Assembly (NCBI GenBank): GCA_015486075.1
Contig: WFSG01000040.1
Span: 4,647-68,646, forward strand
Direction of reading: 5' to 3'
Length of the DNA: 64,000 nt
DNA from: Deltaproteobacteria bacterium
Lineage (GTDB): Bacteria > Desulfobacterota > Desulfomonilia > UBA1062
Part shown: piece after piece, positions 7,656-59,425 of the stretch
How positions within the stretch are numbered: the stretch's first letter is position 1
Layout of the letters: every line of letters begins with the position of its first letter
The notes under the pieces: model-generated
Seen by the model: the letters and a program-made list of their open reading frames with translations, nothing else
Told to the model about the DNA's origin: nothing
Databases searched by the model: none
Program-made: the position numbers and the translations under genes

Positions 7656-7664
7656 ATTATAAAA

Positions 7665-8892: not shown

Positions 8893-8920
8893 GGTATCCT
8901 CCTTCGCTCTTTAGGGTATT

Positions 8921-9967: not shown

Positions 9968-9980
9968 CTACAGATCTCCT

Positions 9981-12503: not shown

Positions 12504-12538
12504 AACCCACCTCCCCTTTTGTTTCTACTTGTATTTTT

Positions 12539-25900: not shown

Positions 25901-28900
25901 CATAGGTTTAGGCTTCCTCATATCGGTGTTAAGAAACGCCGGGCACAAAGTATTCTTCATAGACAATTACCTCAGGCCAGACAATTTCCTTGAAACAGAT
26001 TTTCTCCAGAGAAACAGGATTGATTACGTGGGGATATATGCAAACACCATCTGCTATAGGGATACGCTGAGGATGCTTTACAGGCTTGAATACCTCAGGC
26101 GCACCGGCAGATGGGGAGGTAAAATCATCGTGGGTGGCCCTCATACAACCGTTGCCTTGGATACAATACCTGATTTTGTAGATTACATAGTCCAGGGTGA
26201 AGGAGAGAAGGCCATCCTTGATATTGTGGAAGAAAGGATATCTGAACGTATTGTAAAGTACCCACGTATTAAAGACCTGGATAAACTTCCCATGCCTGCC
26301 TGGGATTACTTTGTCAGAATGCCGTATAACTGGGGGGTAGACTGGTTTCGGGAACAACCTGTGTTCACTATGAATACGAGTAGAGGTTGTCCATTCAGAT
26401 GCACTTTCTGCTCAGTTGGCTCTATCTGGGGAAAACAGTATACCTATTTCAGTGCTGAACGCATCGTCTCTGATATCGAATACCTAACCAGGGAATACGG
26501 TGCAAAGGGGATATATTTCAGGGAAGACAACTTTACCCTAAACAAAAAAAGACTCGTAGAGTTCTGCGAGTTGTTGCTCAAGAAAGGAATAAACATACCA
26601 TGGGCATGCGAGACAAGGGTCTCCAACCTCAACAAGGACATCGTTGAACTAATGTCTCGTGCAGGGGCATGTGGTTTTTATTTTGGCGTGGAGAGCGGTT
26701 CTCAAAGGATACTGGATTTCCTGAAAAAGGATATCAAGGTGGATCAAACAAGAAAGACCTTTGAGCTATGCCACAGGTTTGGTATCAATACAGCCGCAAG
26801 TGTGATAGTTGGAGTCCCAACTGAGACAGAGGATGACCTAAGGCAGACTTACTCACTGTTGAATGACATAAAACCAACAGTTACCTGGTTCAACGTTTTT
26901 GTAGGTATACCGAACAGCGAGCTGTACAAGTATACTATAAAGAATAGGCTTTATGAGTTCATCGATGATAGAGGCCTAGTCTACTTAAAAGGTCACAATG
27001 AACGGGTTAAAAGATTCTATGGTGGGCATATCAATGCAAGTATACCAGCAATACTGGACAATAACGAAAAAACGGCAAATCCAGAGATCACTGTTGTCAT
27101 GCCTGTGTACAACGCTGAGAGATACATAGATAAGGCCATAAAGAGTGTGCTGGCACAAACATATCAAGATTTCGAATTTATAATCATAGATGACGCATCA
27201 ACGGACAACACTAGTGAGATCCTAAAAAGATTTGACGATCCAAGGATTAGGACAATTAAGAACCCTAATAATCTTGGGTTAACAAAATCCCTCAACAAAG
27301 CCATACGTGAAGCAAAAGGTACGTACATAGCTAGAATGGATGCAGATGATATCTCTATACCGCACAGGCTTGAAACCCAGCTCAACTTCCTAAAAAAGAA
27401 CACGGATCATGCACTTGTTGGAAGTTCTTATTACCAGATAGATGATACTGGAAGGATAATCTCCCTGGTCAGGGTACTAAGCGATGATAACGAAATACGT
27501 GCTGGTTTAAAAAAACAGAACTGGTTTGGCCATGGTAGCATAATGATGCTGAAAAGCGCGTTCCTCCAATGCGGAGGTTATGATGAATCTTTTAAATACG
27601 CACAGGATTATGACCTCTGGCTAAGGATCTCAGAGAAGTACAAGGTGGCCAATATAGGAGAGCCTCTTTATCAGTGGAGATCTACTGCTGGAAATATCTC
27701 AAATGCGAGGATTCAAGAGCAGAAATATTTTGCCAGCCTCGCTGTCAAGAAAGCAGAGGAAAGGAAAAAGGCACGTATTATAGACAAAACAGATAAACCC
27801 TTGGTCTCTGTTATTGTCCCTACGTATAACCGTCCTGACATGCTTAGAGAGGCCTTAACGAGCATATTGAACCAGAGCTATCAGAACTATGAGATCATAG
27901 TGGTAAACGATGGAGGTATAAACATAGAAAGCATTATACACCAGCTAAACAGCAAAGGTAATATCACATATGTCAAACATAACATAAACAAGGGTCTTGC
28001 TGCATCAAGGAACAGTGGAATCAGCCTTGCAAAAGGCAAGTATATTGCTTACCTGGATGACGATGATGTGTTCTATCCCGATCACCTGGAGACCTTGGTA
28101 AACCTCCTGGAAGAAACCGACTACAAGGTAGCCTACACTGATGCCTACAGGGCTCACCAGGTATTGTATGACAATTCATATAAGATAACTGCAAGGGATA
28201 TCCCGTACTCGGTGGATTTCTCCAAGGACCTAATACTAATACGTAACCTCTCTCCTGTAAACTGCTTCATGCATGAAAAAAAATGCCTTGAAAAGGTTGG
28301 CCTTTTTGACGAGGCACTCACAACCCACGAGGACTGGGATCTCTGGATCAGGCTATCCAGGAGTTATGACTTCAAACATATAAAAAAGGTTACCACAGAG
28401 TTCAGGGACAGGAGAGACGGTTCAACAATGACAAGTTCCAAACTCCCAGACTTCCTTAGAACAACGCGTATCATATATAAAAGATACAGCAGCTATACAA
28501 TGGGTAGGCAAGATATTCAAAGGGCACAAGAACAAAATATCCATCTACTAGAAAACGAGATATCAAAATATAGTATTTCAGTCTCAATGAAATGCTCCAT
28601 CATCATCCCTGTTTTCAACCAGGTTGAATACACGAAGAAATGCCTCGAGGCACTCGTGGAAAACACGCCAGATGATCTCTACGAAGTGATTATCGTGGAT
28701 AACGGTTCAACCGACGGCACAAAAGAGTTTCTTAAATGCCTTGAAGGCGATGTAAAAATCATCACCAATCAAGAAAACCTAGGTTTTGCAAAGGCATGTA
28801 ACCAGGGCGCAAGAGAGGCAAGCGGCAAATACCTGGTCTTTCTGAATAATGATACCATACCCCAAAAAGGATGGCTGGAAGAGCTGGTCAGGGTAGCCGA

Positions 28901-32615: not shown

Positions 32616-33905
32616 ATGACATTAGCATACCTTGCATCAACAGCTGAGGGCCGTTTTTTCTACCACGGCCATTCATACAAGCTCTCCCCCATTACCTATC
32701 CAGACGTAAATATCCATAACATACTTGTTATGGGAGGCCCTAGCCTGGCAAGGTCAATATGCAAGGAAAACAGTGGGCTCATGACCGGTCTGAATTTCGA
32801 TGCCTCCTTGATTCCAGGTTTCCCCGAGCCACTTGGCATGGCCGTGTCCGAGATACCATGCGGGAAAAGGCTCATGCTTCTGAGGGCAGGAGGCATAGGG
32901 GACCTGATAATGCTCACCCCTGCATTGAGGCAGCTCAGATCAAGGTGCAGATCAGGGGTAAAGATAGCGCTTTCAACTCTCCAGGACAGAAAGGCATTGT
33001 TCGAGGACCTGGGCTTTGTAGATGATTTTTATCCACATCCCATAAGGCTATCAGACCTCGTGGACTCGGCTGATTTCTACGTTGACTTCTCAGACAAAAG
33101 GGGCATCTTCAACCACGTTGACATGATAGACTTCCACCTTGACTGCCTGGGTATAGACCCATCAAGTGTGCCCAAAGAACAGAAAATACCCGAGATATCC
33201 AAGGGACTTTCAAGAAACCATGCAATAAGGGAAGAGATGAAAAGGCTATCAAGGCATGGCCGCCCGCTTGTGATCTATTCACCTGGCGCAAGCGACAGGA
33301 TAAGGTACCTACCAGACGACATACTCGGGCTTCTTGCAACAAGTTTCAAGGGCATCGACTACGTTGTACCCGGTAGCATGCCTAAGACCTGTGAGGGCAT
33401 GGAGAACGTATTCAGTATTGATACGTCTTCTGGCCTGGATGCCTTTGTGACCGCAATCGCAGCATCACACGCTGTCATCACCACGGACAGCTCTGCTTAC
33501 CACATAGCATCGGCACTAAGCAAGCCATGCCTTGTTTTCTTTGGCCCTATCTCGTCGAGTATACGGAGCAAATACTATCCAACGATCGTGGCACTTGATG
33601 CTTGCTATTTCGGCAAGACATGTGCAAGTCCGTGCGGGATAAGTGCACTTACAGAGACACCACCTGTGATACCCATTGGAGCAAACAGGGTAAGGGCACT
33701 TGAAAAAGGGGTAAAGATAACTACTTACTCGGGCGAGTCATTCACCTTTGATCCTGGTAAAGGATGTCCCGAGGCACAGTACCTGGGCAGTAGCACAAGC
33801 CCTTGCCTCATGTCATTTAGCCCGGAAGACATAATAAAGGGATTCGAGAGAGTGATGGATATGGTGGAAAGCCCGGAGAGGGAAAGAAAGAGAGAATCGC
33901 TGTGA
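32616..33905 (+). CDS. GT9-family glycosyltransferase (heptosyltransferase-like), paralog 2
   Basis: Same architecture as 31283-32590 (RLMLLRAGGIGDLIMLTPAL, TTDSSAYHIASALSKPCLVFFGP). Tandem duplicate. Confidence 0.65.
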   Translation: MTLAYLASTAEGRFFYHGHSYKLSPITYPDVNIHNILVMGGPSLARSICKENSGLMTGLNFDASLIPGFPEPLGMAVSEIPCGKRLMLLRAGGIGDLIMLTPALRQLRSRCRSGVKIALSTLQDRKALFEDLGFVDDFYPHPIRLSDLVDSADFYVDFSDKRGIFNHVDMIDFHLDCLGIDPSSVPKEQKIPEISKGLSRNHAIREEMKRLSRHGRPLVIYSPGASDRIRYLPDDILGLLATSFKGIDYVVPGSMPKTCEGMENVFSIDTSSGLDAFVTAIAASHAVITTDSSAYHIASALSKPCLVFFGPISSSIRSKYYPTIVALDACYFGKTCASPCGISALTETPPVIPIGANRVRALEKGVKITTYSGESFTFDPGKGCPEAQYLGSSTSPCLMSFSPEDIIKGFERVMDMVESPERERKRESL

Positions 33906-36433
33906 GTACCATATCGTTCTGCATGATCGTAAAGAATGCCCAGGATGATCTGGGTGAAATCCTTCCTATAATGGCAAAGGTCTCGGACGAGGTCATAGTT
34001 GTAGACACCGGGTCAACAGATAACACCCCTGATGTTGCCAGGACACTCGGTGCAAGCGTTATTGAAATAACATGGAAGGATTCCTTTGCTGAGGCCAGGA
34101 ACACTTACATAGATGCTGCAAGGGGAGACTGGATCATATCCATAGACGCGGACGAGAGGATTGCAGAGAAAGACCTTCACCACATAGCAGAAGCAAAGCA
34201 AAAGCCCCCCCATGGTTTCCTTATGACTACGAGGAATTATGGCAATGATCATGGGGTTGAAGGCTTCAGGCCCTGCACTGGCGAATATCCTGAGTTTGAA
34301 AATGGCTTCAAGGGATGGAGCCCATCCACAAAGGTAAGGATGTTTCCCAGGGTAAAAGGGCTCTACTACACCGGGGAGGTGAGGGAGCTCATAGAGCCCG
34401 GGCTTAAAAGGCTTGGCATACCCTTGGGTGAGGTGCTCACGCCAATACACCATTTTGGAACGCAATCCAGATCAAAGCGCCTATACTACAGGCAACTACT
34501 AGAGAAAAAGGTGCGATCCACGCCCAAGGACCCCAGGGCCATGATAGAGCTCGCAGTTGAGGATTTTCACCTGGGGAGACTGGACAAGGCCATAAGCGAG
34601 GCGGAAAGAGCCATATCCCTCCATGAGGAGGGATATAGAGGCCTTTACTTTGACCTGGCAAGTGCCTATAACCTCCTGGGCGCTGCATACATGAAGGTAG
34701 GGAAGAAGGATAAAGCACTTGAGGCATTCGACGCAGGCATAAAGTCAGGCGGTAGAAACAAGGACGTGCTTAAAAAAAATAAAGGTATATTGCTCTCACA
34801 AGGTATGCGCCCCTCTCTGGGCGTGGTGATGATAGTAAAGGACGAGGAGAAAGACCTGCCGAATATACTGGGCGATATAAAAGATGTGGTAGACGAGATA
34901 GTGGTCGTTGACACGGGTTCCAAAGACCACACGGTAGACGTGGCAAAAGATTTCGGGGCAAAGGTGGGTTACTTCGAGTGGTGTGACGACTTTTCAAAGG
35001 CAAGGAATGCATCCATAGACATGGCTGACTCAGACTATTTACTTTGGCTGGATGCAGACGACAGGATACCTCCAGAGGAGGCGGCCAAGCTACTGAGATT
35101 AAAGAAGAGCCTAAAACCAGGCAAAGATGCTGCATGGATGCTAAAGATAGTCAACACGGACAGGCAAGGTGGAGATACAGTAAGCTACCAGCTGAGGATA
35201 TTCCCGAGAAGGGATGACATGAGGTTTGTAAACAGGGTGCACGAGCAGATATTAGAAGTGGTCCAGAAGGCCGGGATTAAGATAGAATCAGCGGATATCA
35301 CCATAAGGCACACAGGCTACGATGATGAGGCGTCAAGGCTCTTAAAGGCAAGGAGAAACCTAAGGATATTACTCGACGAGGTAGGCCAGGGTAATGTCTC
35401 AAGCTCCAGGTATTTCTTCATAGCTTCATCGTACTTTGCCCTGCACGAATACGAGAGATCCCTTGAATACATCGGGAAGGCAAGGAAGAATTCATTTGGA
35501 AGCGAAAACTGGCTAAAGTACAGTTACTCTCTTGCCGCTGACTGTTACCTGAGGCTGGGCAACAAAGAAAGGGCAGTCCAGGAGTTTGGAGAGGCCACCA
35601 GTATCTACGAAAAGAGCGGGCTCATGCATTATTTCCTAGCAATGACATGCCTTAATGCAGGAATGTTCGAGGATGCTGTAAAGGCCTTTGAAAAAACTGC
35701 ATCCCTTGGCATAGAGATAGAGACATACCCTGTTCCACCAGACATACAGGAGAGTGCACCCTATTACTATGGTGTTGCCTTGGAAAGGCTTGGCAGGACC
35801 AATGAGGCCATGAAGGCATTCAGGACAGCCATAAAGATAAATCCATCACACTTTTTGGCCACCAGGGATCTTGGACTCAGCCTTCTCAAGGCAGGAGATA
35901 TGGACCAATCCCTTTCCTTCCTCGAGAAGGCAAAGAGGCTTGCCCAGGGATACGACCGCGTGCTCTGGCTTAGCATGGCAAAGATATACGATAGGCTTGG
36001 GATGACATCAAGGGCACTTGAAATCTACAGGGAGTCCGTGGGAATAGACCCCTATGACACGGATGCCCTTACTGGCCTGGTGGAGGCAAGCATGAAGGTG
36101 GACGACGTGGAGAGCCTTGTCCTCGGCATGGAGGGTCTCATGAATAACCTTGGAATGGATACGAACATGGTACTAGAGACCGTGGAGGACATAGCAGGTA
36201 CATGCTCTGACATAGCCAGGCGTCTCTTTGAGTCCCAAGATACCTTTAATGCCGAGAAACTCGTCAACTGCGCTTTGAAGCTGGACAAGAAATGTGCCAA
36301 GGCATACCTACTCGCGGCCGATATAAAGATCGCATCAGGGCAAAGAGAAGCAGGTGCCGACTGGCTCGAGAAGGCATTAAGGGCGGGAACACCTACCGAC
36401 GAGATAAAAAAAAGGATGCAGGGACTTTCCTAG
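33902..36433 (+). CDS. tandem GT2 glycosyltransferase with TPR repeat regions (GT2-TPR-GT2-TPR)
   Basis: Two GT2 cores (FCMIVKNAQDDL...VDTGSTDNT at about 33902-34560; GVVMIVKDEEKDL...VDTGSKDHT at about 34810-35330). Each is followed by TPR-like helical repeats, with a long TPR region at 35330-36433. Its start overlaps the preceding stop. Confidence 0.75.
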   Translation: MSTISFCMIVKNAQDDLGEILPIMAKVSDEVIVVDTGSTDNTPDVARTLGASVIEITWKDSFAEARNTYIDAARGDWIISIDADERIAEKDLHHIAEAKQKPPHGFLMTTRNYGNDHGVEGFRPCTGEYPEFENGFKGWSPSTKVRMFPRVKGLYYTGEVRELIEPGLKRLGIPLGEVLTPIHHFGTQSRSKRLYYRQLLEKKVRSTPKDPRAMIELAVEDFHLGRLDKAISEAERAISLHEEGYRGLYFDLASAYNLLGAAYMKVGKKDKALEAFDAGIKSGGRNKDVLKKNKGILLSQGMRPSLGVVMIVKDEEKDLPNILGDIKDVVDEIVVVDTGSKDHTVDVAKDFGAKVGYFEWCDDFSKARNASIDMADSDYLLWLDADDRIPPEEAAKLLRLKKSLKPGKDAAWMLKIVNTDRQGGDTVSYQLRIFPRRDDMRFVNRVHEQILEVVQKAGIKIESADITIRHTGYDDEASRLLKARRNLRILLDEVGQGNVSSSRYFFIASSYFALHEYERSLEYIGKARKNSFGSENWLKYSYSLAADCYLRLGNKERAVQEFGEATSIYEKSGLMHYFLAMTCLNAGMFEDAVKAFEKTASLGIEIETYPVPPDIQESAPYYYGVALERLGRTNEAMKAFRTAIKINPSHFLATRDLGLSLLKAGDMDQSLSFLEKAKRLAQGYDRVLWLSMAKIYDRLGMTSRALEIYRESVGIDPYDTDALTGLVEASMKVDDVESLVLGMEGLMNNLGMDTNMVLETVEDIAGTCSDIARRLFESQDTFNAEKLVNCALKLDKKCAKAYLLAADIKIASGQREAGADWLEKALRAGTPTDEIKKRMQGLS

Positions 36434-38857
36434 ATGAGGATACTGTACTTCAGGTTTGACCTGACCCTGGTGGATGACGACATCATGGAGGGATTCAAGT
36501 CCCTTGGTGCATCCGTAGAGACGGTTGACGTAATAACCCGCGGCAAGAGCAAGTCAAGCCCCATCTACCTGGACGAGCTTGTGCACAGGGTGCATAGGTT
36601 TAGGCCGGATATCATCATGTGCTCAAACGAGAATGCCTTGGACGACGAGGGCCTGTTCTCCAGGGTATTCGCATATTACCACGTGCCCCTTGTCACCTGG
36701 TTCGTGGACAGGCCAGTGGTCTCGCCTGCCGCAAGGCAGAAGAAATTCCTTAAGCATGCAAGTATCATATTCGTTATAGACAGATCCCACATGCAAGGCC
36801 TGAAAAATGAAGGCTTCGACAATGTGCACCTTTTGCCACTTGCTGCAAACCCGAGGAGATCAAGGGAACCTATAGAGAAATGGAGCATGCCACCAGTGTT
36901 TGTTGGAAAGCTTGACCTGGCCAGGTCAAGAGAGGCACTATCAAGGCTCAGGGAAGAGTGGCCCAGCATGAACAGGCTGGACATGGAATTTATAGAGGGT
37001 GCCATTGAATACTACAGGCTCAAGTATTCAATGCATGTAGCAGCCGCAATAAAAGAGCTTATAGAAGAAACTGGCTTCAGGCCTGGCATACCCCCTGGTG
37101 CCATGAATGAGCTAGAGAGGTTCATGGAATACGAGGCAGGGCTCAGGAACAGGGTTGAGATTATATCAGGCATAAAGGACCTAGGCGTGACAACCGTAGG
37201 AGAGAGGGACTGGAGGCTTGTGGTGGGAGAGAACAACGCCCGGGGATACGTGGCCTACGGTTCAGACGAGCTTACAGACATATACAACAGGAGTCTTGCA
37301 ACCATAAACATAACCAGGCCACAGCTTAAAGACGCTGTTAACCAGAGGGCCTTTGACGTGCCCCTTGCTGGTGGCCTTCTACTAACCGATGCAAGGGAGC
37401 AGGTCTTCGAACTATTCGATGTGCCAGAAGAAATGGAGGTCTACACATCCATACAGGACTTGAGGCAGAAGATAATGCACTTCAAGGATAATCCTGGTGA
37501 GCGCCTGGCCAGGATAACAAGGGGCAAGAAAAGGATCATGGGAGAGCACCTCTACAGGCACAGGCTTGAAGACATGCTGGATATCATAGGTGCTACCAGG
37601 CTAAGCTTTGACATCCCGGAACATGACATGGCCTTTAAGAGGATAGAGCCCTACCTGCCGGGACCTGCCATGGAGATCCACGTGAACGAAAGACATGGAT
37701 GCATACTCTTTACGAGGCCCGGAGACCTGGTGTGCGAGGACATAGCCTGGGGCATGAGAAAGGCTGGCATTGCCTGCTCCCTGTACAACACATCCTTAAC
37801 AGACGGGCCAGGCGGGAGAACAGTCACCTTTGACATGGAAAAAATAAAGGCCATGCTGGAAGAACTCAAGCCTGACTTTGTTATATCCAATAATGGCCTC
37901 GGCGCTGATGCAAATGGGGCCATACAGGAATTACTGGCCATAATGGGTATACCCTTTGTAACGTGGTACACGGACGAGCCTAGCCTGGTGGAATCCGAAG
38001 GCATATTACCTTACCATGCGAAAAATACCATTGTCTTCAGCGTCGAGGGCACATATATCCCCATGCTCGAGAAAAGAGGGTTTGTACACGTGGGCCAGCT
38101 AGACCTGGCCGTGAACACGGATAGGTTCTACCCTCTAGAAGGAGAGGCCCCTATATCTGACATCGTGTTTGTCGGGTCCTCGGGCAAGAAACAGATAGAT
38201 GCAATAAAGGCAAGTCTAAAACGCATGGATGTAGATGTAGACAGCCTATCCTCCCACATTGAGCGCATTGTGCCTATTTACATGGCCAATTGGCAATCCC
38301 CGGTAGAAGAAGTGTTTGAACAGGCATGGGAAGGTGAAACATTGGAAGAAACCATAAGACGACCTGTACTTGCATGGATAGAGCACAGGGCCGGCCAGGA
38401 GCTGAGGCTTAAGGTGCTAAACAGCATAAGAGGACTGGACCTCAAGGTCATAGGCGAAGAACACTGGGCAGTACTCATTGGCCATGAGTACTATGGAGGG
38501 GAAATTGTTTATACAAAAGACAACCTTGCAAGGATCTACTCGACCACCCCGATAATTTTAAACATCTCGAGGCCACAGTTGAAGACCGCACTGAACCAGA
38601 GGATATACGATGTACCTGCATGCAATGGTTTCCTTGTGACTGATAAAAGGGAAAGATTACAACAGGTGTTCGGCGAGGACGAGATGGCAAGCTACGAGTA
38701 TTCATCCAACATATCCTCCCTGCTAAGGTACTACCTTGAGAGGCCTGGGCTCAGAAAGGAAATGGCCCAGAGTGCAAGGAAGAGAGTTCTAGATAGCCAC
38801 ACCTATGTCCACAGGGCAAAAGAAATACTCGACGTAGTAATCAGGATTATATCTTAG
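36434..38857 (+). CDS. internally duplicated CgeB-like (DUF3880 + Glyco_trans_1_2) glycosyltransferase
   Basis: Two homologous halves (about 36434-37625 and 37630-38857), e.g. ...VPLVTWFVDRP / ...IPFVTWYTDEP and ...NITRPQLKDAVNQRAFDVPLAGGLLLTD / ...NISRPQLKTALNQRIYDVPACNGFLVTD. The same family as the CgeB-like domain inside the 2769-aa protein. Confidence 0.7.
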   Translation: MRILYFRFDLTLVDDDIMEGFKSLGASVETVDVITRGKSKSSPIYLDELVHRVHRFRPDIIMCSNENALDDEGLFSRVFAYYHVPLVTWFVDRPVVSPAARQKKFLKHASIIFVIDRSHMQGLKNEGFDNVHLLPLAANPRRSREPIEKWSMPPVFVGKLDLARSREALSRLREEWPSMNRLDMEFIEGAIEYYRLKYSMHVAAAIKELIEETGFRPGIPPGAMNELERFMEYEAGLRNRVEIISGIKDLGVTTVGERDWRLVVGENNARGYVAYGSDELTDIYNRSLATINITRPQLKDAVNQRAFDVPLAGGLLLTDAREQVFELFDVPEEMEVYTSIQDLRQKIMHFKDNPGERLARITRGKKRIMGEHLYRHRLEDMLDIIGATRLSFDIPEHDMAFKRIEPYLPGPAMEIHVNERHGCILFTRPGDLVCEDIAWGMRKAGIACSLYNTSLTDGPGGRTVTFDMEKIKAMLEELKPDFVISNNGLGADANGAIQELLAIMGIPFVTWYTDEPSLVESEGILPYHAKNTIVFSVEGTYIPMLEKRGFVHVGQLDLAVNTDRFYPLEGEAPISDIVFVGSSGKKQIDAIKASLKRMDVDVDSLSSHIERIVPIYMANWQSPVEEVFEQAWEGETLEETIRRPVLAWIEHRAGQELRLKVLNSIRGLDLKVIGEEHWAVLIGHEYYGGEIVYTKDNLARIYSTTPIILNISRPQLKTALNQRIYDVPACNGFLVTDKRERLQQVFGEDEMASYEYSSNISSLLRYYLERPGLRKEMAQSARKRVLDSHTYVHRAKEILDVVIRIIS

Positions 38858-40661: not shown

Positions 40662-41033
40662 ATGAACACTACCGGGTATCAAGCGTACAAGAAGGCTCAG
40701 ATTCAAACCGCAGACCAGGGAAGACTTATAATCATGTGTTACGAAGGAACCATTGCGTTTCTTAAGCAGGGGAAGATGGCCATGCTGAACAAAGACGTAA
40801 AGGCATCTTCCGAGCTCTTCACAAAGGCACAGAACGTGCTGTGGGAACTCACCAACAGCCTCAACTTTGAAGCAGGAGAAATAGCCTATAACCTAGAAGC
40901 ACTTTATAACTACATGATAAGACGTATCATAGAGGCCCATTATCACAGCAAGTCAGAGCTAATAGACGAAGTCGTTAATTTTCTAGAGGAATTGAAGGAA
41001 TCATGGGAGAAGATCGTATACAAGAGCAGGTGA
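40662..41033 (+). CDS. fliS: flagellar export chaperone FliS
   Basis: 123 aa with an N-terminus typical of FliS (YQAYKKAQIQTADQGRLIIMCYEGTIAFLKQG) and a four-helix-bundle-type sequence. Confidence 0.75.
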   Translation: MNTTGYQAYKKAQIQTADQGRLIIMCYEGTIAFLKQGKMAMLNKDVKASSELFTKAQNVLWELTNSLNFEAGEIAYNLEALYNYMIRRIIEAHYHSKSELIDEVVNFLEELKESWEKIVYKSR

Positions 41034-48886: not shown

Positions 48887-50164
48887 ATGCTTGATATTAA
48901 GACCATAAGACAGAACCCTGCCAAGGTGGAACTGGCACTTAAGACCAGGGGCGAGGTTATAGACATAAGGGGATTACTCAGTCTCGACAAGAAAAGAAGA
49001 GAACTCATCCAAAAGGCAGATGTCCTAAAGGCAAAAAGAAATACCTTCTCCCAGAAAATAGCAAGGTCCAAGGCAGAAGGCAAGGACTACCCCACTATGG
49101 ATACCAAACAAATGAGAGAAATATCCGAGACCATAAAGGATATCGATAGTGAAATACGACAACTCGAGGAAAAAATTAAACTGGTTCTTCTTGAAATACC
49201 TAACATACCACACGAAAGCGTACCCATAGGTGAAAATGAGGAACAGAACAAGATAAAAAGACACTGGGGCGATAAACCAGGGTTTGACTTTATACCAAGA
49301 CCACACTGGGAAATCGGCGAATCACTGGGTATGCTCGATTTTAAAAGGGCTGCAAAGCTATCTGGAGCCAGGTTTTGCCTTTACTGGGGCACTGGCGCAA
49401 GGCTTGAGAGGGCGCTCATAAGCTTCATGTTGGACGTGCATACGAGGGAACACGGCTATACAGAAGTGCTTCCCCCTTTTATGGTAAGTAAGGAGACCAT
49501 GACTGCAACTGGTCAACTCCCCAAGTTCGAGGATGACCTCTTCTCAACCAGAGACCAGTATTACCTAATACCAACAGCTGAGGTGCCGGTGACAAATATT
49601 TACAGAGCCGAGACCATCGACGAAGAGGACCTACCAGTAAAGCTGGTGGCCTACACGCCCTGTTTCAGGAGGGAGGCAGGATCCTACGGCAAAGATACCA
49701 GGGGGCTGACGCGACAACACCAGTTCAACAAGGTAGAGCTAGTGCGCTTTGCACATCCGTCGCACTCCTACGAAGACCTAGAGGAATTAACCTCTGAGGC
49801 AGAGGAGATACTCAGGAGGCTTGGCCTTCATTACAGGGTTGTTACACTATGCACTGGAGACCTCGGCTTCTCAGCGTCCAAAACCTATGACCTCGAGGTA
49901 TGGATGCCAGGTCAGAACAGGTACGTGGAGATATCATCGTGCTCTAACTTCGAGGACTTCCAGGCAAGAAGGGCAAGGATAAGGTATACATCGAGGAAGG
50001 CCAAGAAAAACGGGCTTTGTCATACCCTCAACGGCAGTGGCCTTGCGGTTGGTAGGACCCTTGCGGCCATACTTGAGAACTACCAGTTATCGGACGGCTC
50101 CGTGGAGGTTCCGGATGTGCTTAAGGGTTACATGGGTCTTGACCGAATAGAGGCTATAAGCTAG
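48887..50164 (+). CDS. serS: seryl-tRNA synthetase
   Basis: N-terminal coiled-coil arm plus a class II aaRS core (...FRREAGS..., ...[18 protein letters not shown]); 425 aa. Confidence 0.9.
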
Positions 50165-50182: not shown

Positions 50183-50270
50183 GGAGGGATGGCCGAGTGG
50201 CTTAAGGCGGCGGTCTTGAAAACCGCTGTACCGTAAGGTACCGTGGGTTCGAATCCTACTCCCTCCGCCA
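50183..50270 (+). tRNA. tRNA-Ser (anticodon TGA)
   Basis: GGAGGGATGGCCGAGTGG...CTTGAAA anticodon loop...long variable arm...GGTTCGAATCC...TCCCTCC-G-CCA. The 7-bp acceptor stem is complementary, and the long extra arm is typical of tRNA-Ser. Confidence 0.85.
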
Positions 50271-50277
50271 ATATCAT

Positions 50278-50369
50278 GGAGAGATGGCCGAGTGGCTTAA
50301 GGCGCTCGCCTGCTAAGCGAGTGTGGGGCGAAAGCTCCACCGAGGGTTCAAATCCCTCTCTCTCCGCCA
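50278..50369 (+). tRNA. tRNA-Ser (anticodon GCT)
   Basis: GGAGAGATGGCCGAGTGG...CTGCTAA anticodon loop...long variable arm...GGTTCAAATCC...TCTCTCC-G-CCA. Confidence 0.85.
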
Positions 50370-51559: not shown

Positions 51560-54109
51560 CTAGTGGGCATGGTACCAGCTCCCACCCATACCCATGTCTA
51601 CCTTGATAGGAACAGATAGTGGATATGCCCCCTCCATCTCCTCTTTTACCATGGAGGAAACTCTTTCTACCTCGCTTTCCTCTACTTCAAACACGAGTTC
51701 ATCGTGCACTTGGATTATCATCTTGCTCTTTAGCCCCTTAAGCCTGGAATGTATCCTTACCATAGCCATTTTTATTATATCGGCTGCACTACCCTGTACC
51801 GGGGTATTCACGGCTATCCTCTTGGCCGCTTCTCTCTCGTTGAAGTTCACGGAGTTTATACCGGGTATAGAGCGTCTCCTCCCTGCTATGGTGGTGACAA
51901 AACCCTCTTTCTTAGCTGTATCAACTATGCCATCTATATAGGATCTGACCCCTGGATACTTGTCGAGGTAGTTTTCTATGTAGCGCCTTGCCATGTCTCT
52001 TGGTATGCCGAGTTCTCCGGCCAGCCTGTGTGCACTCATTCCGTATATAATGCCAAAGTTTATCGTCTTTGCCTTTCTCCTCTCGTCCTCGTTTACCTGG
52101 TCCAGCGAGACGCCAAATATCTCTGATGCTGTCCTTGCATGAATATCAATATCATTTAGAAAAGAGTCCACTAGTGCCTTATCACCTGTTATATGGGCAA
52201 GCACCCTCAGCTCTATCTGTGAGTAATCAGCACTCAGTATCCTGAACCCAGCAGGTGCAACAAAGGCTTTCCTTATACGCTTACCTGTCTCTGTTCTCAC
52301 CGGGATGTTCTGAAGGTTGGGTTCAGACGATGATATGCGTCCTGTTGCCGTTACACACTGGTTGAATTTTGCATGAATCCTTCCTGTACGCGGGTTAACC
52401 ATACCGGCAAGCGCATCTATATAGGTATTCTTAAACTTCGTCAGCATCCTGTAATCAAGCACCAGTCCGGGTAATTCATGCCTATACCTTAAGGCCTCCA
52501 GCACTCCGCTATCCGTGGAATAGCCGGTCTTCGTCTTCTTCACGGCTGGAAGGCCCAGTTCTTCAAACAGGATATGTCCAAGCTGACGTGTCGAATTTAT
52601 GTTGAACTTTCTACCGCACATGGAATAGATTTCCTGCTCCAGCCGCTCTATGTCAGCCCTTGTCTCCTCGGATAGACGTGCAAGGATCTCTCTATCAACA
52701 AGTACGCCCCTTGTCTCCATAGCAGCTAGCACGTGCACCAGTGGCATCTCTATGTCCCTGTACACCTTCTCCACACCGAGCCTTTGCATGCATTCTTCAA
52801 GCCTTGACCTCAGAGGTAGCAGTACCTCGGCATGTGATGCAAGGAACACGGCAACATCTTCATTGGAGAGGTCCCTCAAGGAACGTGCGTCTCTCCCACT
52901 GCCCAATATGTCCCTTTTACTGTCGAGGCCAATGCCTAGGTATGCCTTGGATAGGTCTTCAATCTTTGTAACGTTCGAGGTCGCATCGCAGCAGTAAGAA
53001 CTTATCATTGTATCAAAAAACCTCGCCCTTGATTCAATGCCTGAACTCTTTGCCTCGACAATAGCCTGTTTTGCATCGTGGATGGTTATCTCCATGCCTT
53101 CTTCCCCGAGCAGGGCCAAGTACTTGCTAGCATCCAAGCATACAACGTTCTCTTGCCCGTTGTTCAGGGCCGATCCAAGCCCAGACACCACGTACATGCC
53201 TGCAGGCTTGGACACGTCCCACTGGCAATCGTATCTAAAGGTTGTCTCAATGCTTTCAGGCCGGTAGACAGATTTTAACTCCCTGAGTAATTCCTTGAAC
53301 TCGAGCTCCCTGAAAACATCTGCAAGTACATTCTCATCTCTCTTTCCCACCTGTAAATCATCAAGCCCAACATCAAGTTCAATGTCTCTATCAAGCCTTA
53401 CAAGCTCCAGCCCGGAGAGTGCCTTTTCTGCGCCTGCCTTCATCAATTCCCTGAGCCTGTCCTGTTTTATATTGTCAACACTATTCAGGATTTCGTCAAG
53501 GTGTCCAATCCCGTTTATAAGGGTTATAGCGCCCTTGGCACCTACACCGCTTACGCCAGGTATATTATCCGAGCTGTCTCCCATGATGGCTAGAAGGTCG
53601 GGTATGTACTCTGGATACACTCCGAACTTCTCCTTTACGGCATCGGCATCGTAGAACCTGTTCTTCAGCGTGTCCCACACCTTCACCCCATCTCCAACGA
53701 GCTGCATCAGATCCTTGTCCCCTGATACGATTATTATTTCAGCCCTATGCCTGAATCTCCTCGCAAGCGTGGCTATTATATCGTCTGCCTCGTACCCTTC
53801 TTTCTGTATGATAGGTATACCAAGGGCGCCGACGATCTTGAGTATAAAGGAAAATTGAGCCTCAAGATCTTCGGGCATCTTGTGTCTCGTTGCCTTGTAT
53901 TCCTTGTATACAAGGTGCCTAAGTGTGGGGCCCACGGAGTCAAGGACAAACGCCATGTGTGATGGATTCCTCTCCCTTTGTATCTTTAAAAGCATGCGAG
54001 TCAGGATATAGATGGCATTGGTGGGCAACCCACTAGAGGTGCTAAGCCCCCTCATGGCATAGAAAGCCCTGTATATGTAGGAACTACCATCCAGCAGATA
54101 TATTTCCAT
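51560..54109 (-). CDS. polA: DNA polymerase I
   Basis: 849 aa. N-terminal 5'-3' exonuclease (MEIYLLDGSSYIYRAFYA), a central 3'-5' exo-like region, and polymerase motifs (...RRRSIPGINSVN..., ...IIQVHDELVFEV). Confidence 0.9.
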   Translation of the reverse strand: MEIYLLDGSSYIYRAFYAMRGLSTSSGLPTNAIYILTRMLLKIQRERNPSHMAFVLDSVGPTLRHLVYKEYKATRHKMPEDLEAQFSFILKIVGALGIPIIQKEGYEADDIIATLARRFRHRAEIIIVSGDKDLMQLVGDGVKVWDTLKNRFYDADAVKEKFGVYPEYIPDLLAIMGDSSDNIPGVSGVGAKGAITLINGIGHLDEILNSVDNIKQDRLRELMKAGAEKALSGLELVRLDRDIELDVGLDDLQVGKRDENVLADVFRELEFKELLRELKSVYRPESIETTFRYDCQWDVSKPAGMYVVSGLGSALNNGQENVVCLDASKYLALLGEEGMEITIHDAKQAIVEAKSSGIESRARFFDTMISSYCCDATSNVTKIEDLSKAYLGIGLDSKRDILGSGRDARSLRDLSNEDVAVFLASHAEVLLPLRSRLEECMQRLGVEKVYRDIEMPLVHVLAAMETRGVLVDREILARLSEETRADIERLEQEIYSMCGRKFNINSTRQLGHILFEELGLPAVKKTKTGYSTDSGVLEALRYRHELPGLVLDYRMLTKFKNTYIDALAGMVNPRTGRIHAKFNQCVTATGRISSSEPNLQNIPVRTETGKRIRKAFVAPAGFRILSADYSQIELRVLAHITGDKALVDSFLNDIDIHARTASEIFGVSLDQVNEDERRKAKTINFGIIYGMSAHRLAGELGIPRDMARRYIENYLDKYPGVRSYIDGIVDTAKKEGFVTTIAGRRRSIPGINSVNFNEREAAKRIAVNTPVQGSAADIIKMAMVRIHSRLKGLKSKMIIQVHDELVFEVEESEVERVSSMVKEEMEGAYPLSVPIKVDMGMGGSWYHAH

Positions 54110-54120
54110 GTCAGACTATC

Positions 54121-54591
54121 TCATTTGTACAGGAGGCCCTTGTCCTCACCCTTTCTCCAACTAGAATAATCACCTATTATAATCGCATGGTCAAAGGCTA
54201 CATCCTGTGGAAGATTGTCCAAGGAAAAGATCCCTGCATTTGCAGCATCGTCACCTGCCGCTAGCCTACCCCGGCCCTGGGCCACGAATACGGTAGTAAT
54301 GGTATGTCCCCTCGGGTCCCTGTCCGGTGATGAATACACATGAAACATGCGCAAGTTCTCAAGCCTAAGTCCTGTCTCTTCCCTTGCCTCACGGATTGCT
54401 GCATGTTCAACGCTCTCACCGTAATCCACGAATCCCCCTGGAAGTGCCCAGCCCGCGGGTGGATTCTTCCTATATACCATAACGATGCCACCTTTGTACT
54501 CTATTATTATGTCAACCGTTGGTACAGGGTTACTGTAAACTACTATGCCATGCCCGCAATTCGGGCAAGTGATGGTCTTTGTCGCTGACAT
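54121..54591 (-). CDS. NUDIX hydrolase with N-terminal zinc ribbon
   Basis: CPNCGH N-terminus and Nudix box [24 protein letters not shown]; 156 aa. Confidence 0.8.
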
Positions 54592-55244
54592 CAGCCTTCA
54601 CTCATCCGAATGGACACGGAGATACCCTGGGAGTCATCTACGTATACATCTGCAATGGAGGCCAGGTCTCTGAAAATATTACCCAGTGCATCCTTGATCC
54701 TGGTTTCAGTCCCTGCATCAGGACACGTTATCTTCACGGTACACCCATCCAGGATAATCCTTATCACCCTACCCTTGTCCGTATTGTCTATTATAGTCTC
54801 TATCGCCTCCACAACAGCGGATGAGAGTACATTGTAATCTATCTTTACATAGCATGAACCCTGGGTGTCTATCTGTAGCTCCATCTTTGTATCGTGCTTG
54901 AACCTCATATCGGACATCAGGAAATCGGTCTCCATCCTTAGATATTCCCTCAGGTCTATTGCATCAATATCGCCCTGTGCCATCTGGATCTTGTAGCTAA
55001 TCGCCTTCAATATAGAGTTTATCCTCTCGGCCCCTTCAAGTATGGATGCCAGATCCTCGCTGTTCTTTTTTACTATCTTCTTTATCTCCTGGGCTTGCAT
55101 GCCGTCCATCTCCCCAAGCATGTCATTCCTTGCCTCTATGAGCTGCGACCTGCCCATTATCCACATGAGGGGTGTATTGAGGTTGTGTACCATCCCACCG
55201 AGAAGTGAGCCAGCCTGGTTGAGCACCCTCTGTTTCGGGTTCAT
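54591..55244 (-). CDS. histidine-kinase-like protein (HisKA-like H-box with short/degenerate ATPase domain)
   Basis: H-box-like [20 protein letters not shown], followed by an about 150-aa region with N-box-like ([18 protein letters not shown]) and D-box-like (VKITCPDAG) elements but no recognisable G2 box. The start overlaps the aminopeptidase stop. Confidence 0.4.
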
Positions 55245-56596
55245 TTCTCCTCCATGAATGCACGGTAAGCCAGGTATGTAGAGTATAGATCAACCTTTGA
55301 CGCTACCTCGAAGGGCGCATGCATGGATAGCAGCGCAGGACCCATGTCCACTATCTCCATGCCGTACTCAGCAAGGTACTTTGCAACCGTACCACCACCT
55401 CCCTCGTCAACCTTACCCAGCTCCCCTGTCTGCCAGGGTATGCTTCTCCTGTTAAGAATGGATCTAATCCAGGCCATGTACTCGGCCCTTGCCTCGCTTG
55501 AACCTGACTTACCCCTAGAGCCTGTGAACTTGGTAACGCAGACCCCATAACCAAGCTTGGCCGCATTTGTCTTCTCGTGCACTTCTGGATAATCAGGATC
55601 AAGGGCACCGTTCACGTCGGCCGAGATGGCAAGGCTCTTGAATAATACCCTGGAGGGCACAATATTCGACCCTAGTCGCTCCCCTATATCCCAGACAACC
55701 TCTTCCAAGAACCTGCTCTTTGCACCAGTGTTGCCCTCACTACCTATCTCTTCCTTGTCCACGAGCAGGACCACTGTGGTGTAAGGCAGATCCTTTGCCT
55801 CAATCAATGCCTTAAGCGCAGCCCATGCACATGACCTGTCATCATGACCGTAGGCCCCTATCATGGAAGAATCCAGACCTACCTCCCTGGCAGGTCCAGC
55901 AGGTACGATCTCCAGGTCAGCAGACACAAAGTCTTCTTCCACCATGTTGTACTTCCTTTTCAACAGATCCAATATTGCTTTTTTTACCTTGTCTTCCTTT
56001 GCGCCGGTATCTGGCCTGGACCCCACAATAAGGTTGAGCCTCTCCCCCTCAAAGGCATCGCTTACCTTTTTGTTGTACTGCTTCTGGGCAAGGTGCGGAA
56101 GCAGGTCTTCTATGGTAAAACATACATCTTTATCTCTCTCTCCTATAACAAGGTCTACAACGCTGCCATCTTCTTTGGCAATCCTACCATGCATCGCCAG
56201 TGGTCTTGCGAGCCACTGGTACTTTTTTATGCCACCGTAATAATGGGTCTTTAGCATAGCGATCTCTGTGTCCTCATATAGAGGGTTTACCTTAAGGTCA
56301 AGCCTGGGAGAATCAATGTGCGCAACCACTATACGTATGCCATCCATTGGGGTTATCTTGCCCTCTTTCCAGAGTGCTATGGCCTTTCCTCTGTTCTCAA
56401 GGTACACAATACCCTCCAAGGTATCCACCACCTTCTTGACGTAATCAACGGCCTCTCTCTCTGTCTTAACACCTGAGATAAATTTCATATACTCCTTGCA
56501 ATAGGCATCTATCTCTTTATACTTACCCTTGAGTTTCTCCCAGCCAGACATCTTCTCTTGCTTGGCTTTACTCTTGCTTGTCCTTTTCTCCACCAT
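55241..56596 (-). CDS. M18-family aminopeptidase (aspartyl/peptidase M18-like)
   Basis: VVAHIDSPRLDLK metal-binding motif; 451 aa; M18/M42-type dinuclear zinc aminopeptidase architecture. Confidence 0.7.
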   Translation of the reverse strand: MVEKRTSKSKAKQEKMSGWEKLKGKYKEIDAYCKEYMKFISGVKTEREAVDYVKKVVDTLEGIVYLENRGKAIALWKEGKITPMDGIRIVVAHIDSPRLDLKVNPLYEDTEIAMLKTHYYGGIKKYQWLARPLAMHGRIAKEDGSVVDLVIGERDKDVCFTIEDLLPHLAQKQYNKKVSDAFEGERLNLIVGSRPDTGAKEDKVKKAILDLLKRKYNMVEEDFVSADLEIVPAGPAREVGLDSSMIGAYGHDDRSCAWAALKALIEAKDLPYTTVVLLVDKEEIGSEGNTGAKSRFLEEVVWDIGERLGSNIVPSRVLFKSLAISADVNGALDPDYPEVHEKTNAAKLGYGVCVTKFTGSRGKSGSSEARAEYMAWIRSILNRRSIPWQTGELGKVDEGGGGTVAKYLAEYGMEIVDMGPALLSMHAPFEVASKVDLYSTYLAYRAFMEEK

Positions 56597-56726
56597 GCTC
56601 TTCCCCTATCTTCTCTGAGTAAACCTCGGTTATGGCCCTTACCTGTATGCCGGCAGCCTTGAGGGCTTTCCGCACATCTGCCTTGCTTGCATCGCTCACT
56701 TTAAGGATAAAACTCGAGTTCTTCAT
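56568..56726 (-). CDS. 52-aa small ORF translationally coupled to the radical SAM gene
   Basis: Hand-translated as MKNSSFILKVSDASKADVRKALKAAGIQVRAITEVYSEKIGEEHGGEKDKQE. Its ATG overlaps the upstream stop as ATGA, it is preceded by GGAGGT, and it overlaps the aminopeptidase start by 29 nt. Below the ORF-track size cutoff. Confidence 0.35.
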   Translation of the reverse strand: MKNSSFILKVSDASKADVRKALKAAGIQVRAITEVYSEKIGEEHGGEKDKQE

Positions 56727-57751
56727 AGAAACCTCCCTGGTATTAGCTTGTTACACTTGGTACACCTACCCTCTGTTATATTGTTTTGCCTTACAAAAAA
56801 ACCATTCCTTGAGATAAGAAGCGCCCCGCATTCAGGACAGTACGTGTCTTCACCCTTGCTTGACGCAATATTACCCGTATACACGAATTTAAGCCCTTCA
56901 GAAAGACCTATCTCGCGTGCCATCTCCACGGTTGACAAGGGTGTGGGTGGTGCCTTGTCATAGAGATATCTCGGGAAGTACCTGCTCACATGCCAGGGAA
57001 TGTCAGGGCTTACGGAGTATATGAACCTGGCGATATCCTTTAGTTCCTCCTTGGAGTCGTTCTCTCCAGGTATCACAAGGGTCGTTATTTCCAGCCAGAC
57101 ACCGCTATCATGGTATGCCTTTATTGAATCAAGAACGTGTTGCAGCCGACCAGCACATAGCCTTCTATAAAAACGATCAGAGAACGACTTGAGATCAATG
57201 TTTGCCGCATCTATAAGACCTTTCAGGTCTTTCCTTATGATGTCCGTGCTTACGTAGCCGTTTGTCACGAGTAGATTGAGCATGTGCTCCCTTGCTGCCA
57301 GCCTTGCCGTATCAATGACATACTCCATGAAAATAGTGGGTTCGGTATAGGTGTAAGCAATGCTTGAACAGCCACTTTCCCTTGCCAGCCTTACCACCTC
57401 CTTGGGTGGTAAGTCATCTCCCACTATCCTGCCCGTCAGTATGGGGTATTGCGATATGTCACTGTTCTGGCAGAACCTGCACCTGAAGTTGCACCCGACC
57501 GTTGCAATAGAATAGGCAAGGGTGCCGGGTAGGACGTGAAAAAATGGTTTTTTCTCTATGGGATCCACGTTTGCGGCAACTGCCTTGGGCCATACAAGGG
57601 TATAGAGTTCACCTCCAATGTTCTTCCTAACGCCACAAACGCCCACGCCACCTTCCTTGATTATGCACCTGTGGGGACACAGCTCGCACCTTACATCATT
57701 ACCCTTAAGCCTTCTCCAATAGCTTGCCTTCTTCACGCGTAGACCCCGCAA
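56723..57751 (-). CDS. AmmeMemoRadiSam-system radical SAM enzyme (PflA-like)
   Basis: CNFRCRFCQN CxxxCxxC motif after an N-terminal cysteine-rich CELCPHRC...GVCGVR region and a C-terminal CPECG...C..C zinc ribbon. These match the radical SAM member of the AMMECR1/MEMO1/radical-SAM triad. Confidence 0.75.
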   Translation of the reverse strand: MRGLRVKKASYWRRLKGNDVRCELCPHRCIIKEGGVGVCGVRKNIGGELYTLVWPKAVAANVDPIEKKPFFHVLPGTLAYSIATVGCNFRCRFCQNSDISQYPILTGRIVGDDLPPKEVVRLARESGCSSIAYTYTEPTIFMEYVIDTARLAAREHMLNLLVTNGYVSTDIIRKDLKGLIDAANIDLKSFSDRFYRRLCAGRLQHVLDSIKAYHDSGVWLEITTLVIPGENDSKEELKDIARFIYSVSPDIPWHVSRYFPRYLYDKAPPTPLSTVEMAREIGLSEGLKFVYTGNIASSKGEDTYCPECGALLISRNGFFVRQNNITEGRCTKCNKLIPGRFL

Positions 57752-57766
57752 ACCCTTAACATGTCC

Positions 57767-59425
57767 TTAGTCCCTGTACCTTGCCCCCTTGTCCGCAGAG
57801 AGACTCATACTTGCATATCTTTTTAGAACACCAGTGAGCGTTCTCTCCGGTTGCCTCCAGTTCTCACTCCTCTTCTGTATCTCTTCATCGCTCACCAGCA
57901 GATCTATTCTCCTCCCTGGGATATCTATCTCTATCACGTCACCTTCCTTTACAAGGGCTATGGGCCCACCCTCTGCTGCCTCTGGCGAGCAATGGCCAAC
58001 CGCTGCTCCTCTTGTTCCACCGCTGAACCTGCCGTCCGTTATAAGCGCAACATCAGTATCCAGCCCCATGCCAGCTATGGCAGAGGTAGGGGTAAGCATT
58101 TCCCTCATGCCAGGACCGCCCTTTGGTCCCTCGTAACGTATTACCACTGCATCTCCCTTCTCTATCTTGCCAGACATTATGGCCTCGGTTGCATCTTCTT
58201 CCGAGTCAAATACCCTTGCCCTTGCCTTTACCTTCATCATCTCCGGAAGTACGCCAGACTGCTTGACAACTGCACCGTCCGGGGCAAGACTACCCCTAAG
58301 GATGGCAATGCCACCCTCTTCGTGGTACGGGGAGGTGGTAGGCCTTATCACCTCTGAATTTGTTATCCTAGCTTGTTCAAGGTTTTTCTCAAGCCTTGAT
58401 CCTGTTACTGTCATGACCGAAGTGTCAAGCACTCCCAGACCTGAGAGGCGTTTCATGACGCCCATTACCCCACCCGCATAGTACAGGTCCTCTATGTGAT
58501 AGGGTCCAGCCGGTGACATGTTGCACAGGTGAGGGACCTTCCGACTCATGCGGTCAAAGTCATCAAGTTCGAGCTCAATACCAGCTTCGTATGCTATGGC
58601 AGGAACGTGAAGCACCGTGTTGGTGGAACAGCCGAGTGCCATGTCCACGGCTATGGCATTCATGAAGGACTCCTTCGTTGCTATGTCTCTCGGCCTTATA
58701 TCCTTTTCTAGCAGTTCCATGACCTTCATACCAGCGTGTTTTGCAAGCCTCAACCTTATAGATAACGGGGCAGGAATGGTACCGTTTCCTGGCAGGCCCA
58801 GACCAAGTGCCTCGGTTAGGCAGTTCATAGAGTTGGCAGTGAACATGCCAGAGCATGAACCACATGATGGACACGCTGCATCTTCCAGTTCCTTCAGGTC
58901 TTGCTCGGTTATTTTTCCCGCCTTGAGCTCGCCAACACCCTCGAAAACGCTTATAAGATCAACTGTCCTCCCATCAAGCCTGCCAGCGAGCATTGGACCA
59001 CCAGACACAACTATGGATGGTATGTTGAGCCTGAGACATGCCATGAGCATACCCGGGACTATCTTGTCGCAGTTTGGCACGAACACCATTGCGTCAAAGG
59101 CATGGCCCATTGCTATAAGCTCTATGGAATCCGCTATGATTTCCCTCGTGGGCAAGGAATACTTCATTCCCTCGTGGTTCATGGCGATACCATCACACAT
59201 GCCTATGACCGAGAATTCCATGGGCGTCCCCCCTGCGAGTCTCACTCCTGCCTTTACAGCAGATACTACCTGGTTCAGGTGCATGTGCCCTGGTATCAGT
59301 TCGTTTGCCGAGTTCACTATACCCACGAAAGGCCTAGCTATCTCCTCATCCGTAAGGCCCAACGCCTTCATTAAAGACCTGTGCGGTGCCTTTTCTACTG
59401 ATTTCTTGGTTTTGTCACTCCTCAT
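57767..59425 (-). CDS. ilvD: dihydroxy-acid dehydratase
   Basis: ILVD/EDD motifs ([47 protein letters not shown]); 552 aa. Confidence 0.9.

Follow-up and report, generated by a model that had tools for sequence, protein, structure and literature searches.

A conserved 52-residue protein encoded beside an AmmeMemoRadiSam-type radical SAM enzyme in a deltaproteobacterial operon

The 64-kb window, by which we mean the whole stretch of DNA analyzed here, carries an AmmeMemoRadiSam-type radical SAM gene whose stop codon is overlapped by a 52-codon open reading frame, and this short frame is a real, conserved protein-coding gene. We consider it likely that the two genes belong to a compact housekeeping operon and that the small protein, present in this operon in a single deltaproteobacterial clade, is independent of the enzyme and linked to it by position. 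In most other organisms the small gene lies beside unrelated genes, which argues that its product is probably not the substrate or a partner of the enzyme.

Operon layout and the radical SAM enzyme

The operon is read in the order ilvD, radical SAM gene, small gene, M18 aminopeptidase, 217-aa protein, NUDIX hydrolase, polA (Table 1), and its junctions range from a 29-nt overlap, where the M18 start runs into the tail of the small gene, to gaps of at most 30 nt. The arrangement of the first four genes is as described in an earlier sequence-only reading of this DNA, and so is the start of the small ORF on the enzyme's stop codon (ATG on TGA, a 4-nt ATGA overlap); the 52-residue sequence quoted there is exact. 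The first operon gene, ilvD, is found upstream of the enzyme in every locus that shares the ilvD–radical SAM–small gene–M18 order (context A below), and the gene for the 217-aa protein is syntenic in loci L001 to L008 and in L178. A promoter and terminator scan gave no excess over shuffled sequences and no internal terminator of note, and an Rfam scan returned two tRNA-Ser genes only.

Table 1. Features of the operon and of the glycyl radical enzyme pair in the window.
Feature	Positions	Strand	Evidence and remarks
ilvD, dihydroxy-acid dehydratase	57767..59425	-	TIGR00110, 794 bits; PF00920/PF24877
AmmeMemoRadiSam-type radical SAM enzyme	56723..57751	-	TIGR04337, 345.1 bits (cutoff 220); PF04055
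GGGAGG Shine-Dalgarno of the small gene	56732..56737	-	kept in 14/14 distinct context-A loci
52-aa conserved small protein	56568..56726	-	purifying selection, family, AlphaFold2 model
M18 family aminopeptidase	55241..56596	-	PF02127, 2e-84; NF002600, 634.6 bits (cutoff 529)
217-aa conserved protein	54591..55244	-	HisKA 22.4 bits, below cutoff; 4-nt overlap with M18
NUDIX hydrolase	54121..54591	-	PF00293, called in identical and syntenic loci
DNA polymerase I (polA)	51560..54109	-	PF00476/PF02739/PF01367 in gene calls; last gene of the syntenic block
Glycyl radical enzyme	9981..12503
Activase of the glycyl radical enzyme	8921..9967

The sequence places the enzyme among the standard members of the AmmeMemoRadiSam family, an identity that the earlier reading had drawn from its cysteine motifs and that is borne out here. 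The match to TIGR04337 (AmmeMemoSam_rS) covers model positions 2–333 of 349. The CxxxCxxC motif CNFRCRFCQN (C82/C86/C89) is invariant in a 30-sequence alignment, and both the N-terminal cysteines (C17/C20/C24/C34) and the C-terminal ones (C300/C303/C325/C328) are likewise invariant among 30 homologues. The longest ORF opens with TTG at 57751, and relatives begin five codons later, at VKKASYW (GTG 57736); the latter is likely the true start, giving a protein of 337 aa, the same as in the relatives. Compared with other bacterial TIGR04337 members, the enzyme has no distinguishing feature. Homology to the PFL/glycyl-radical activases is distant and concerns the radical SAM core (TIGR02493, 49 bits; TIGR02494, 43 bits), and these scores fall far under the cutoffs; many relatives of the enzyme are labelled PFL activase by JGI. 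The window's actual glycyl radical enzyme has its own activase (Table 1).

Memo–AMMECR1 systems were reportedly described by Burroughs et al. in 2019 (JBC). To search for these two families, we built profiles from Pfam-verified neighbors, and neither profile matched any reading frame of the 64-kb window; Pfam scans of the larger ORFs in the window likewise revealed neither AMMECR1 nor Memo. The absence of both from the window, as claimed in the sequence-only reading, is thus upheld. The same reading took the "lone" position of the enzyme as a distinguishing trait, which it is not, because neither AMMECR1 nor Memo is nearby in 38 of 41 diverse enzyme loci whose flanks reach 4 kb or more on each side. 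In a wider set of diverse enzyme loci, one or the other lies within 8 kb in only 5 of 79. The enzyme gene stands apart from AMMECR1 and Memo, as it does for most bacterial members; the three-gene AmmeMemoRadiSam cassette of adjacent genes is missing from the window and atypical in the sample too, and missing AMMECR1/Memo neighbors should therefore not count as unusual for an AmmeMemoRadiSam enzyme. A role of this enzyme in RNA base modification was put forward in 2007 as a prediction only (PMC2034487), and the literature we reached held no functional study of AmmeMemoRadiSam, TIGR04337 or AMMECR1 with radical SAM.

Coding evidence and genomic contexts of the small gene

Between the window and locus L009, the small gene differs at 14 synonymous and 3 nonsynonymous sites over 33 codons. 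In comparisons between context-A loci, pS is at saturation (0.61–1.0) against a pN of 0.04–0.25, and dN/dS is 0.03–0.18 where dS can be estimated. Downstream of orthologous enzymes (59–88% identical), the small gene is conserved, the outcome that the sequence-only reading had asked for in its check of this ORF, and its 4-nt overlap with the enzyme gene is strictly kept across context A. A GGGAGG motif sits 5 nt before the small-gene ATG, inside the codons that specify Gly-Arg in PGRF at the enzyme's C terminus; these codons read GGG-AGG in all 14 distinct context-A loci and GGG-AGA in a Desulfomonilia locus that lacks the small gene. The small ORF would be translated with this motif as its Shine-Dalgarno sequence, within the last codons of the enzyme gene.

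When the 52-aa sequence alone served as query, a word-indexed search returned nothing but that sequence, a misleading result, since later searches uncovered a family: 58 clusters at 90% identity by profile search and 103 representatives at 50% identity by exhaustive HMMER search. The family spans Thermodesulfobacteriota-like and Nitrospirota MAGs and occupies five genomic contexts. Metagenome loci were sampled as the best 80 of at least 600 pattern matches, with a narrower alignment, so that the sample is biased. Ten of these 80 loci, together with L001 to L009, have the arrangement of the window (context A), in which the small gene overlaps M18 by 25–49 nt. The other 70 of the best 80 (Thermodesulfovibrionales; a member was assigned to a Thermodesulfovibrionales MAG) have the order pyrH–frr–small gene–DksA-like zinc finger, with gaps of mostly 0–3 nt (context B): the small gene follows frr immediately, in an rpsB–tsf–pyrH–frr operon, and is itself followed at once by a DksA/TraR zinc-finger gene, the distance to which is mostly 0–4 nt (extremes, a 19-nt overlap and a 106-nt gap). 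In context C it lies between a DnaJ/HTH_25 gene and one for an 829-aa protein; in context D it is a stand-alone gene followed by one for an 82-aa protein and by Slp lipoproteins; and in context E, in Nitrospiria, it precedes a haem-oxygenase-like gene. In these last two contexts, it has intergenic regions of its own.

Viewed from the side of the enzyme, the association is equally restricted. A six-frame profile search found no small gene within 8 kb of 79 other diverse enzyme loci, a set that takes in the Thermodesulfovibrionales loci L043 and L076. In Desulfomonilia relatives, whose enzyme is 61% identical, the order ilvD–radical SAM–M18–NUDIX–polA is kept without the small gene, a 38-nt spacer taking its place. 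The earlier proposal that the small protein takes the place of AMMECR1 and MEMO1 is at odds with the main location of the family, flanked by frr and a DksA-like gene, and with its occurrence in three other contexts, and the proposal that it is the enzyme's substrate or partner does not fit the 79 enzyme loci or the Desulfomonilia block. In Thermodesulfovibrionales MAGs, the enzyme and the small protein are both encoded, at unlinked loci, and the two may therefore still co-occur at the genome level.

Family and predicted fold of the small protein

The small protein matched no family model in Pfam, NCBIfam, PHROGs or PADLOC, and a sequence profile search of the PDB gave nothing below E = 0.09. 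It consists of a basic core of ~40 residues and a variable, disordered and mostly acidic tail; across the family, the tails are acidic or Pro/Ala-rich, of low complexity, and not conserved. AlphaFold2 models residues 1–40 with a pLDDT of 88–94, as a helix (residues 15–24) between two extended segments. In the monomer model, these segments are unpaired and form no intramolecular sheet, which suggests that a second copy of the protein, or another protein, is probably needed to complete one. Small beta-alpha-beta subunits that form sheets by oligomerizing are known from 4-oxalocrotonate tautomerase-type proteins, dodecin and the half ferredoxin-like/RRM fold, and the small protein may oligomerize in a similar manner.

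Three specific assignments were considered and rejected. A tautomerase identity fails for want of Pro1. The PASTA domain (PF03793) scored 21.3 bits against a gathering threshold of 23.2 with half of the domain covered; its helix-strand portion gave a weak local match in 7 of 60 family members (E up to 0.01), and, in contrast to PASTA proteins, the small gene has no penicillin-binding protein or kinase context. The ribosomal L7/L12 C-terminal domain gave an hhalign probability of 7% over 15 columns and a PDB profile E of 1.4.

Relation of the small protein to its neighbors

On the reading that we favor, the small protein would be co-expressed with the enzyme in one clade and work independently of it. 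The main home of the family, between frr and a DksA/TraR gene, points to a role related to translation, the ribosome or RNA as the most likely one, gene neighborhood being the basis of this suggestion. One point counts against a link by position only: a functional pair, too, could be expected to keep the strict ATGA overlap seen across context A. What is observed is a strongly constrained small-protein family with a ~40-residue core that is uncatalogued in Pfam and NCBIfam. It is worth cataloguing, with a candidate translation-related role given its placement in the rpsB–tsf–pyrH–frr operon of Thermodesulfovibrionales.

The ATGA overlap in every context-A locus is also the first argument for the view that, in this clade, the small protein serves the enzyme as a dedicated substrate or an accessory subunit, for example in a RiPP-like set of enzyme, precursor and M18 peptidase, a view that we hold to be improbable. 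The order enzyme–peptide–peptidase does resemble RiPP clusters (radical SAM maturase, precursor, peptidase), as does the conserved N-terminal part of 40 residues followed by a variable C-terminal tail, and a related radical SAM domain has been reported in peptide-processing systems (PMC7159879). Unlike RiPP precursors, however, most members of the family have no radical SAM gene nearby (as in the 70 context-B loci among the best 80, and in three further contexts), and the 79 other enzyme loci are without the small gene. The aligned members shown contain no Cys, and the protein has neither a Cys/Ser/Thr-rich core nor a conserved target residue, its tails being acidic and of low complexity. A glycyl-radical-type site (RVxG) was rejected because G26, the only Gly that comes near to being conserved, gives way to N or D in many members. 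Furthermore, the conserved part is confidently modeled as folded, unlike a typical leader peptide, and M18 is here a syntenic housekeeping aminopeptidase whose adjacency to the enzyme gene persists in Desulfomonilia without the small gene.

A peptide both conserved and coupled to the enzyme would have offered a valuable clue to the substrate of the AmmeMemoRadiSam enzyme, and most of that hope is gone with the finding that the family lives mainly elsewhere. It is very unlikely that the small protein was recruited in this clade to serve the enzyme as its dedicated partner or substrate, e.g., by sheet completion or by modification followed by trimming through M18; if it was, the pair would offer the first experimental handle on the target of a widespread enzyme family.

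The small protein might instead serve as an adaptor or regulator for whichever gene follows, M18 here and the DksA-like gene elsewhere. Coupling to the downstream gene is as tight as to the upstream one, both in the M18 overlaps of context A and in the short gaps of context B. However, the downstream genes are unrelated to one another (M18, DksA/TraR zinc finger, 829-aa, 82-aa and haem-oxygenase-like), the gene stands alone in contexts D and E, and M18 holds its place without it in Desulfomonilia, which makes such a role quite improbable. Finally, we give almost no credence to a chance ORF, or a mere spacer that couples M18 translation to the enzyme: the frame is short, lacks a database model, matched only itself in the first word-based search and overlaps the M18 start with its tail, but strong purifying selection at saturated synonymous divergence effectively refutes this idea, and the amino acid sequence is conserved over two phyla and five contexts, with a confident AlphaFold2 model.

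Gene order and constraint on the small open reading frame

The radical SAM gene and the 52-aa ORF that follows it belong to seven tightly packed genes, ilvD through polA, on the minus strand (see the table). The junction between ilvD and the radical SAM gene is 15–30 nt; the radical SAM gene and the small ORF overlap by 4 nt, ATGA being common to the ORF's ATG and the enzyme's stop codon, an arrangement that bears out the sequence-only reading. The small ORF overlaps the M18 gene by 29 nt, M18 overlaps the 217-aa gene by 4 nt, the latter overlaps the NUDIX gene by 1 nt, and 11 nt separate NUDIX from polA. The 217-aa protein has no Pfam family, its sole match (HisKA, 22.4 bits) being below threshold; all relatives, even those lacking the small gene, keep it syntenic, with M18 and NUDIX on either side.

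Features of the window and their positions
Feature	Position	Strand
ilvD	59425..57767	minus
radical SAM gene	57751..56723	minus
52-aa ORF	56726..56568	minus
M18 aminopeptidase	56596..55241	minus
217-aa protein	55244..54591	minus
NUDIX hydrolase	54591..54121	minus
polA	54109..51560	minus
glycyl radical enzyme region	8038..13300	minus
PNPOx-like protein	8038..8892	
activase	8921..9967	
840-aa ORF	9981..12503	
GntR/FadR regulator	12539..13300	
listed with glycyl radical enzyme region	6417..7724	minus
dTDP-rhamnose epimerase	19530..20081	
CmcI-type O-methyltransferase	22109..22927	
2769-aa ORF	22959..31268	plus
further GT/TPR proteins	33902..38857	
fliS	40662..41033	
seryl-tRNA synthetase	48887..50164	
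two tRNA-Ser genes	50183..50369	plus

Conservation downstream of orthologous enzymes, proposed earlier as a check, was found: enzyme homologues at 59–88% identity are followed by a clearly homologous ORF of 47–57 aa that likewise overlaps the enzyme gene by 4 nt. The 33 core codons show saturation at synonymous sites (pS 0.61–1.0), with pN at 0.04–0.25; the window and the homologous locus L009 differ by 14 synonymous and 3 non-synonymous changes, and dN/dS is 0.03–0.18 for pairs in which dS could be estimated. GGG-AGG, encoding the enzyme's C-terminal Gly-Arg and placing GGGAGG 5 nt 5' of the small gene's start codon, is kept in 14/14 distinct loci of the enzyme–small ORF type, and a relative that lacks the small gene carries GGG-AGA at the equivalent codons. 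By these sequence comparisons the small ORF is a genuine, strongly constrained and uncatalogued small protein gene.

The radical SAM enzyme and its usual partners

The enzyme matches TIGR04337 (AmmeMemoRadiSam system radical SAM enzyme; cutoff 220) at 345.1 bits, with glycyl-radical activases as the runners-up at <60 bits. Across 30 homologues there is no variation in its CNFRCRFCQN motif or in its four N-terminal and four C-terminal Cys. It is an ordinary member of its family, and its true start is probably GTG 57736, since relatives begin at VKKASYW. AMMECR1, the dioxygenase-like Memo and the radical SAM enzyme have been predicted to act in one pathway, perhaps RNA base modification (PMC2034487), and a related radical SAM domain has been noted in peptide-processing systems (PMC7159879); no functional study of this family came up in literature searches.

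AMMECR1 and Memo profiles were built from neighbours of distant enzyme homologues (identities Pfam-confirmed as PF01871 and PF01875; one Memo-AMMECR1 fusion among them). Neither protein was found by six-frame profile search of the 64-kb window or by Pfam scans of its larger ORFs, so the description of the enzyme as lone stands locally. This is nothing out of the ordinary: of 79 diverse loci from bacteria and archaea, retrieved with the enzyme alignment, only 5 carry AMMECR1 or Memo within 8 kb, and 38 of the 41 flanked by at least 4 kb on each side have neither; a locally lone enzyme is thus the norm in the sampled loci. In a Candidatus Omnitrophota MAG, a 562-aa Memo-AMMECR1 fusion directly adjoins the radical SAM gene (L084:8845-10533).

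Distribution and possible role of the small-protein family

A profile search gave 58 family clusters at 90% identity, and an exhaustive HMMER search 103 representatives at 50% identity, mostly of 40–80 aa. Looked-up members are unnamed or "hypothetical protein", save for one seemingly spurious JGI label, and the MAG labels of named members are Deltaproteobacteria, Thermodesulfobacteriota, Thermodesulfovibrionales and Nitrospiria. Pfam, NCBIfam, PHROGs and PADLOC hold no model for the family; PASTA matches, all below threshold, occur in 7/60 members. AlphaFold2 gives pLDDT 88–94 over residues 1–40 and a disordered tail, with one helix (15–24) between two extended segments left unpaired with one another; we infer that these would form a strand-helix-strand unit whose sheet is completed only by another copy of the protein or by a partner. 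Two members (L136:4989-5156 and L138:4989-5156) lack an ATG, GTG or TTG where the start codon normally lies, the frame reading WRYKITNRNFILKV, which suggests a non-canonical (ATA or ATT) or otherwise unusual start.

Five distinct contexts were found. Among the best 80 of at least 600 metagenome pattern matches, 70 show pyrH-frr-small-DksA/TraR zinc-finger protein, with gaps mostly of 0–3 nt (context B; one such member is from a Thermodesulfovibrionales MAG), and 10 show the ilvD-rSAM-small-M18 order of the window and loci L001–L009 (context A). The others are DnaJ/HTH_25-small-829 aa (C) and stand-alone genes 5' of an 82-aa gene and Slp lipoproteins (D) or, in Nitrospiria, of a haem-oxygenase-like gene (E). 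In Thermodesulfovibrionales-type contigs (L091:5001-5770, L092, L104–L173) the small gene is wedged between frr and the DksA/TraR gene, whose product has 160–205 aa, and this conserved trio ends the rpsB-tsf-pyrH-frr operon; none of the libraries searched describes it. Because this operon, with its adjoining DksA-like gene, is the dominant context, our best guess, from neighbourhood alone, is a translation- or RNA-related role.

The earlier suggestion that the small protein could be the enzyme's substrate or partner is not supported, as contexts B–E lack the enzyme and a six-frame search of the 79 other enzyme loci (~1 Mb, Thermodesulfovibrionales MAGs included) found no family member; we consider such a role in the window's clade very improbable. 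The small protein lacks Cys and a conserved Gly-radical site, its tail is variable and acidic, and the model shows its conserved part folded; these features all speak against a substrate of RiPP-like or glycyl-radical type. In Desulfomonilia relatives, whose enzyme is 61% identical, the order ilvD-rSAM-M18-214aa-NUDIX-polA persists with a 38-nt spacer replacing the small gene, which was not found within 5 kb; the Desulfomonilia-type contigs L178 (6014-6053) and L179 thus differ from the window by clean absence of the gene within an otherwise conserved block. The family is not bound to the enzyme, and the small gene's place after it is peculiar to one clade's version of a housekeeping operon. 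The original observation is confirmed and its interpretation partly supported.

Other features of the window

The 2769-aa ORF combines about six GT2 glycosyltransferase domains and a GT1-like domain with an internal module (residues 980–1301) made up of B12-binding and radical SAM parts, and with C-terminal TPR repeats. The sugar-modification island around it, including the epimerase, the O-methyltransferase and further GT/TPR proteins, with fliS, may serve flagellin glycosylation, the fused enzyme in it being unusually large. The 840-aa ORF is the most likely candidate for a PFL-like glycyl radical enzyme, which is accompanied by a dedicated activase with an insert of two ferredoxin domains; the PNPOx-like protein, the GntR/FadR regulator and a YcaO protein lie nearby. 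Immediately downstream of a gene that Pfam assigns to seryl-tRNA synthetase in L001, a near-identical locus, come the two tRNA-Ser genes, with anticodons TGA and GCT.
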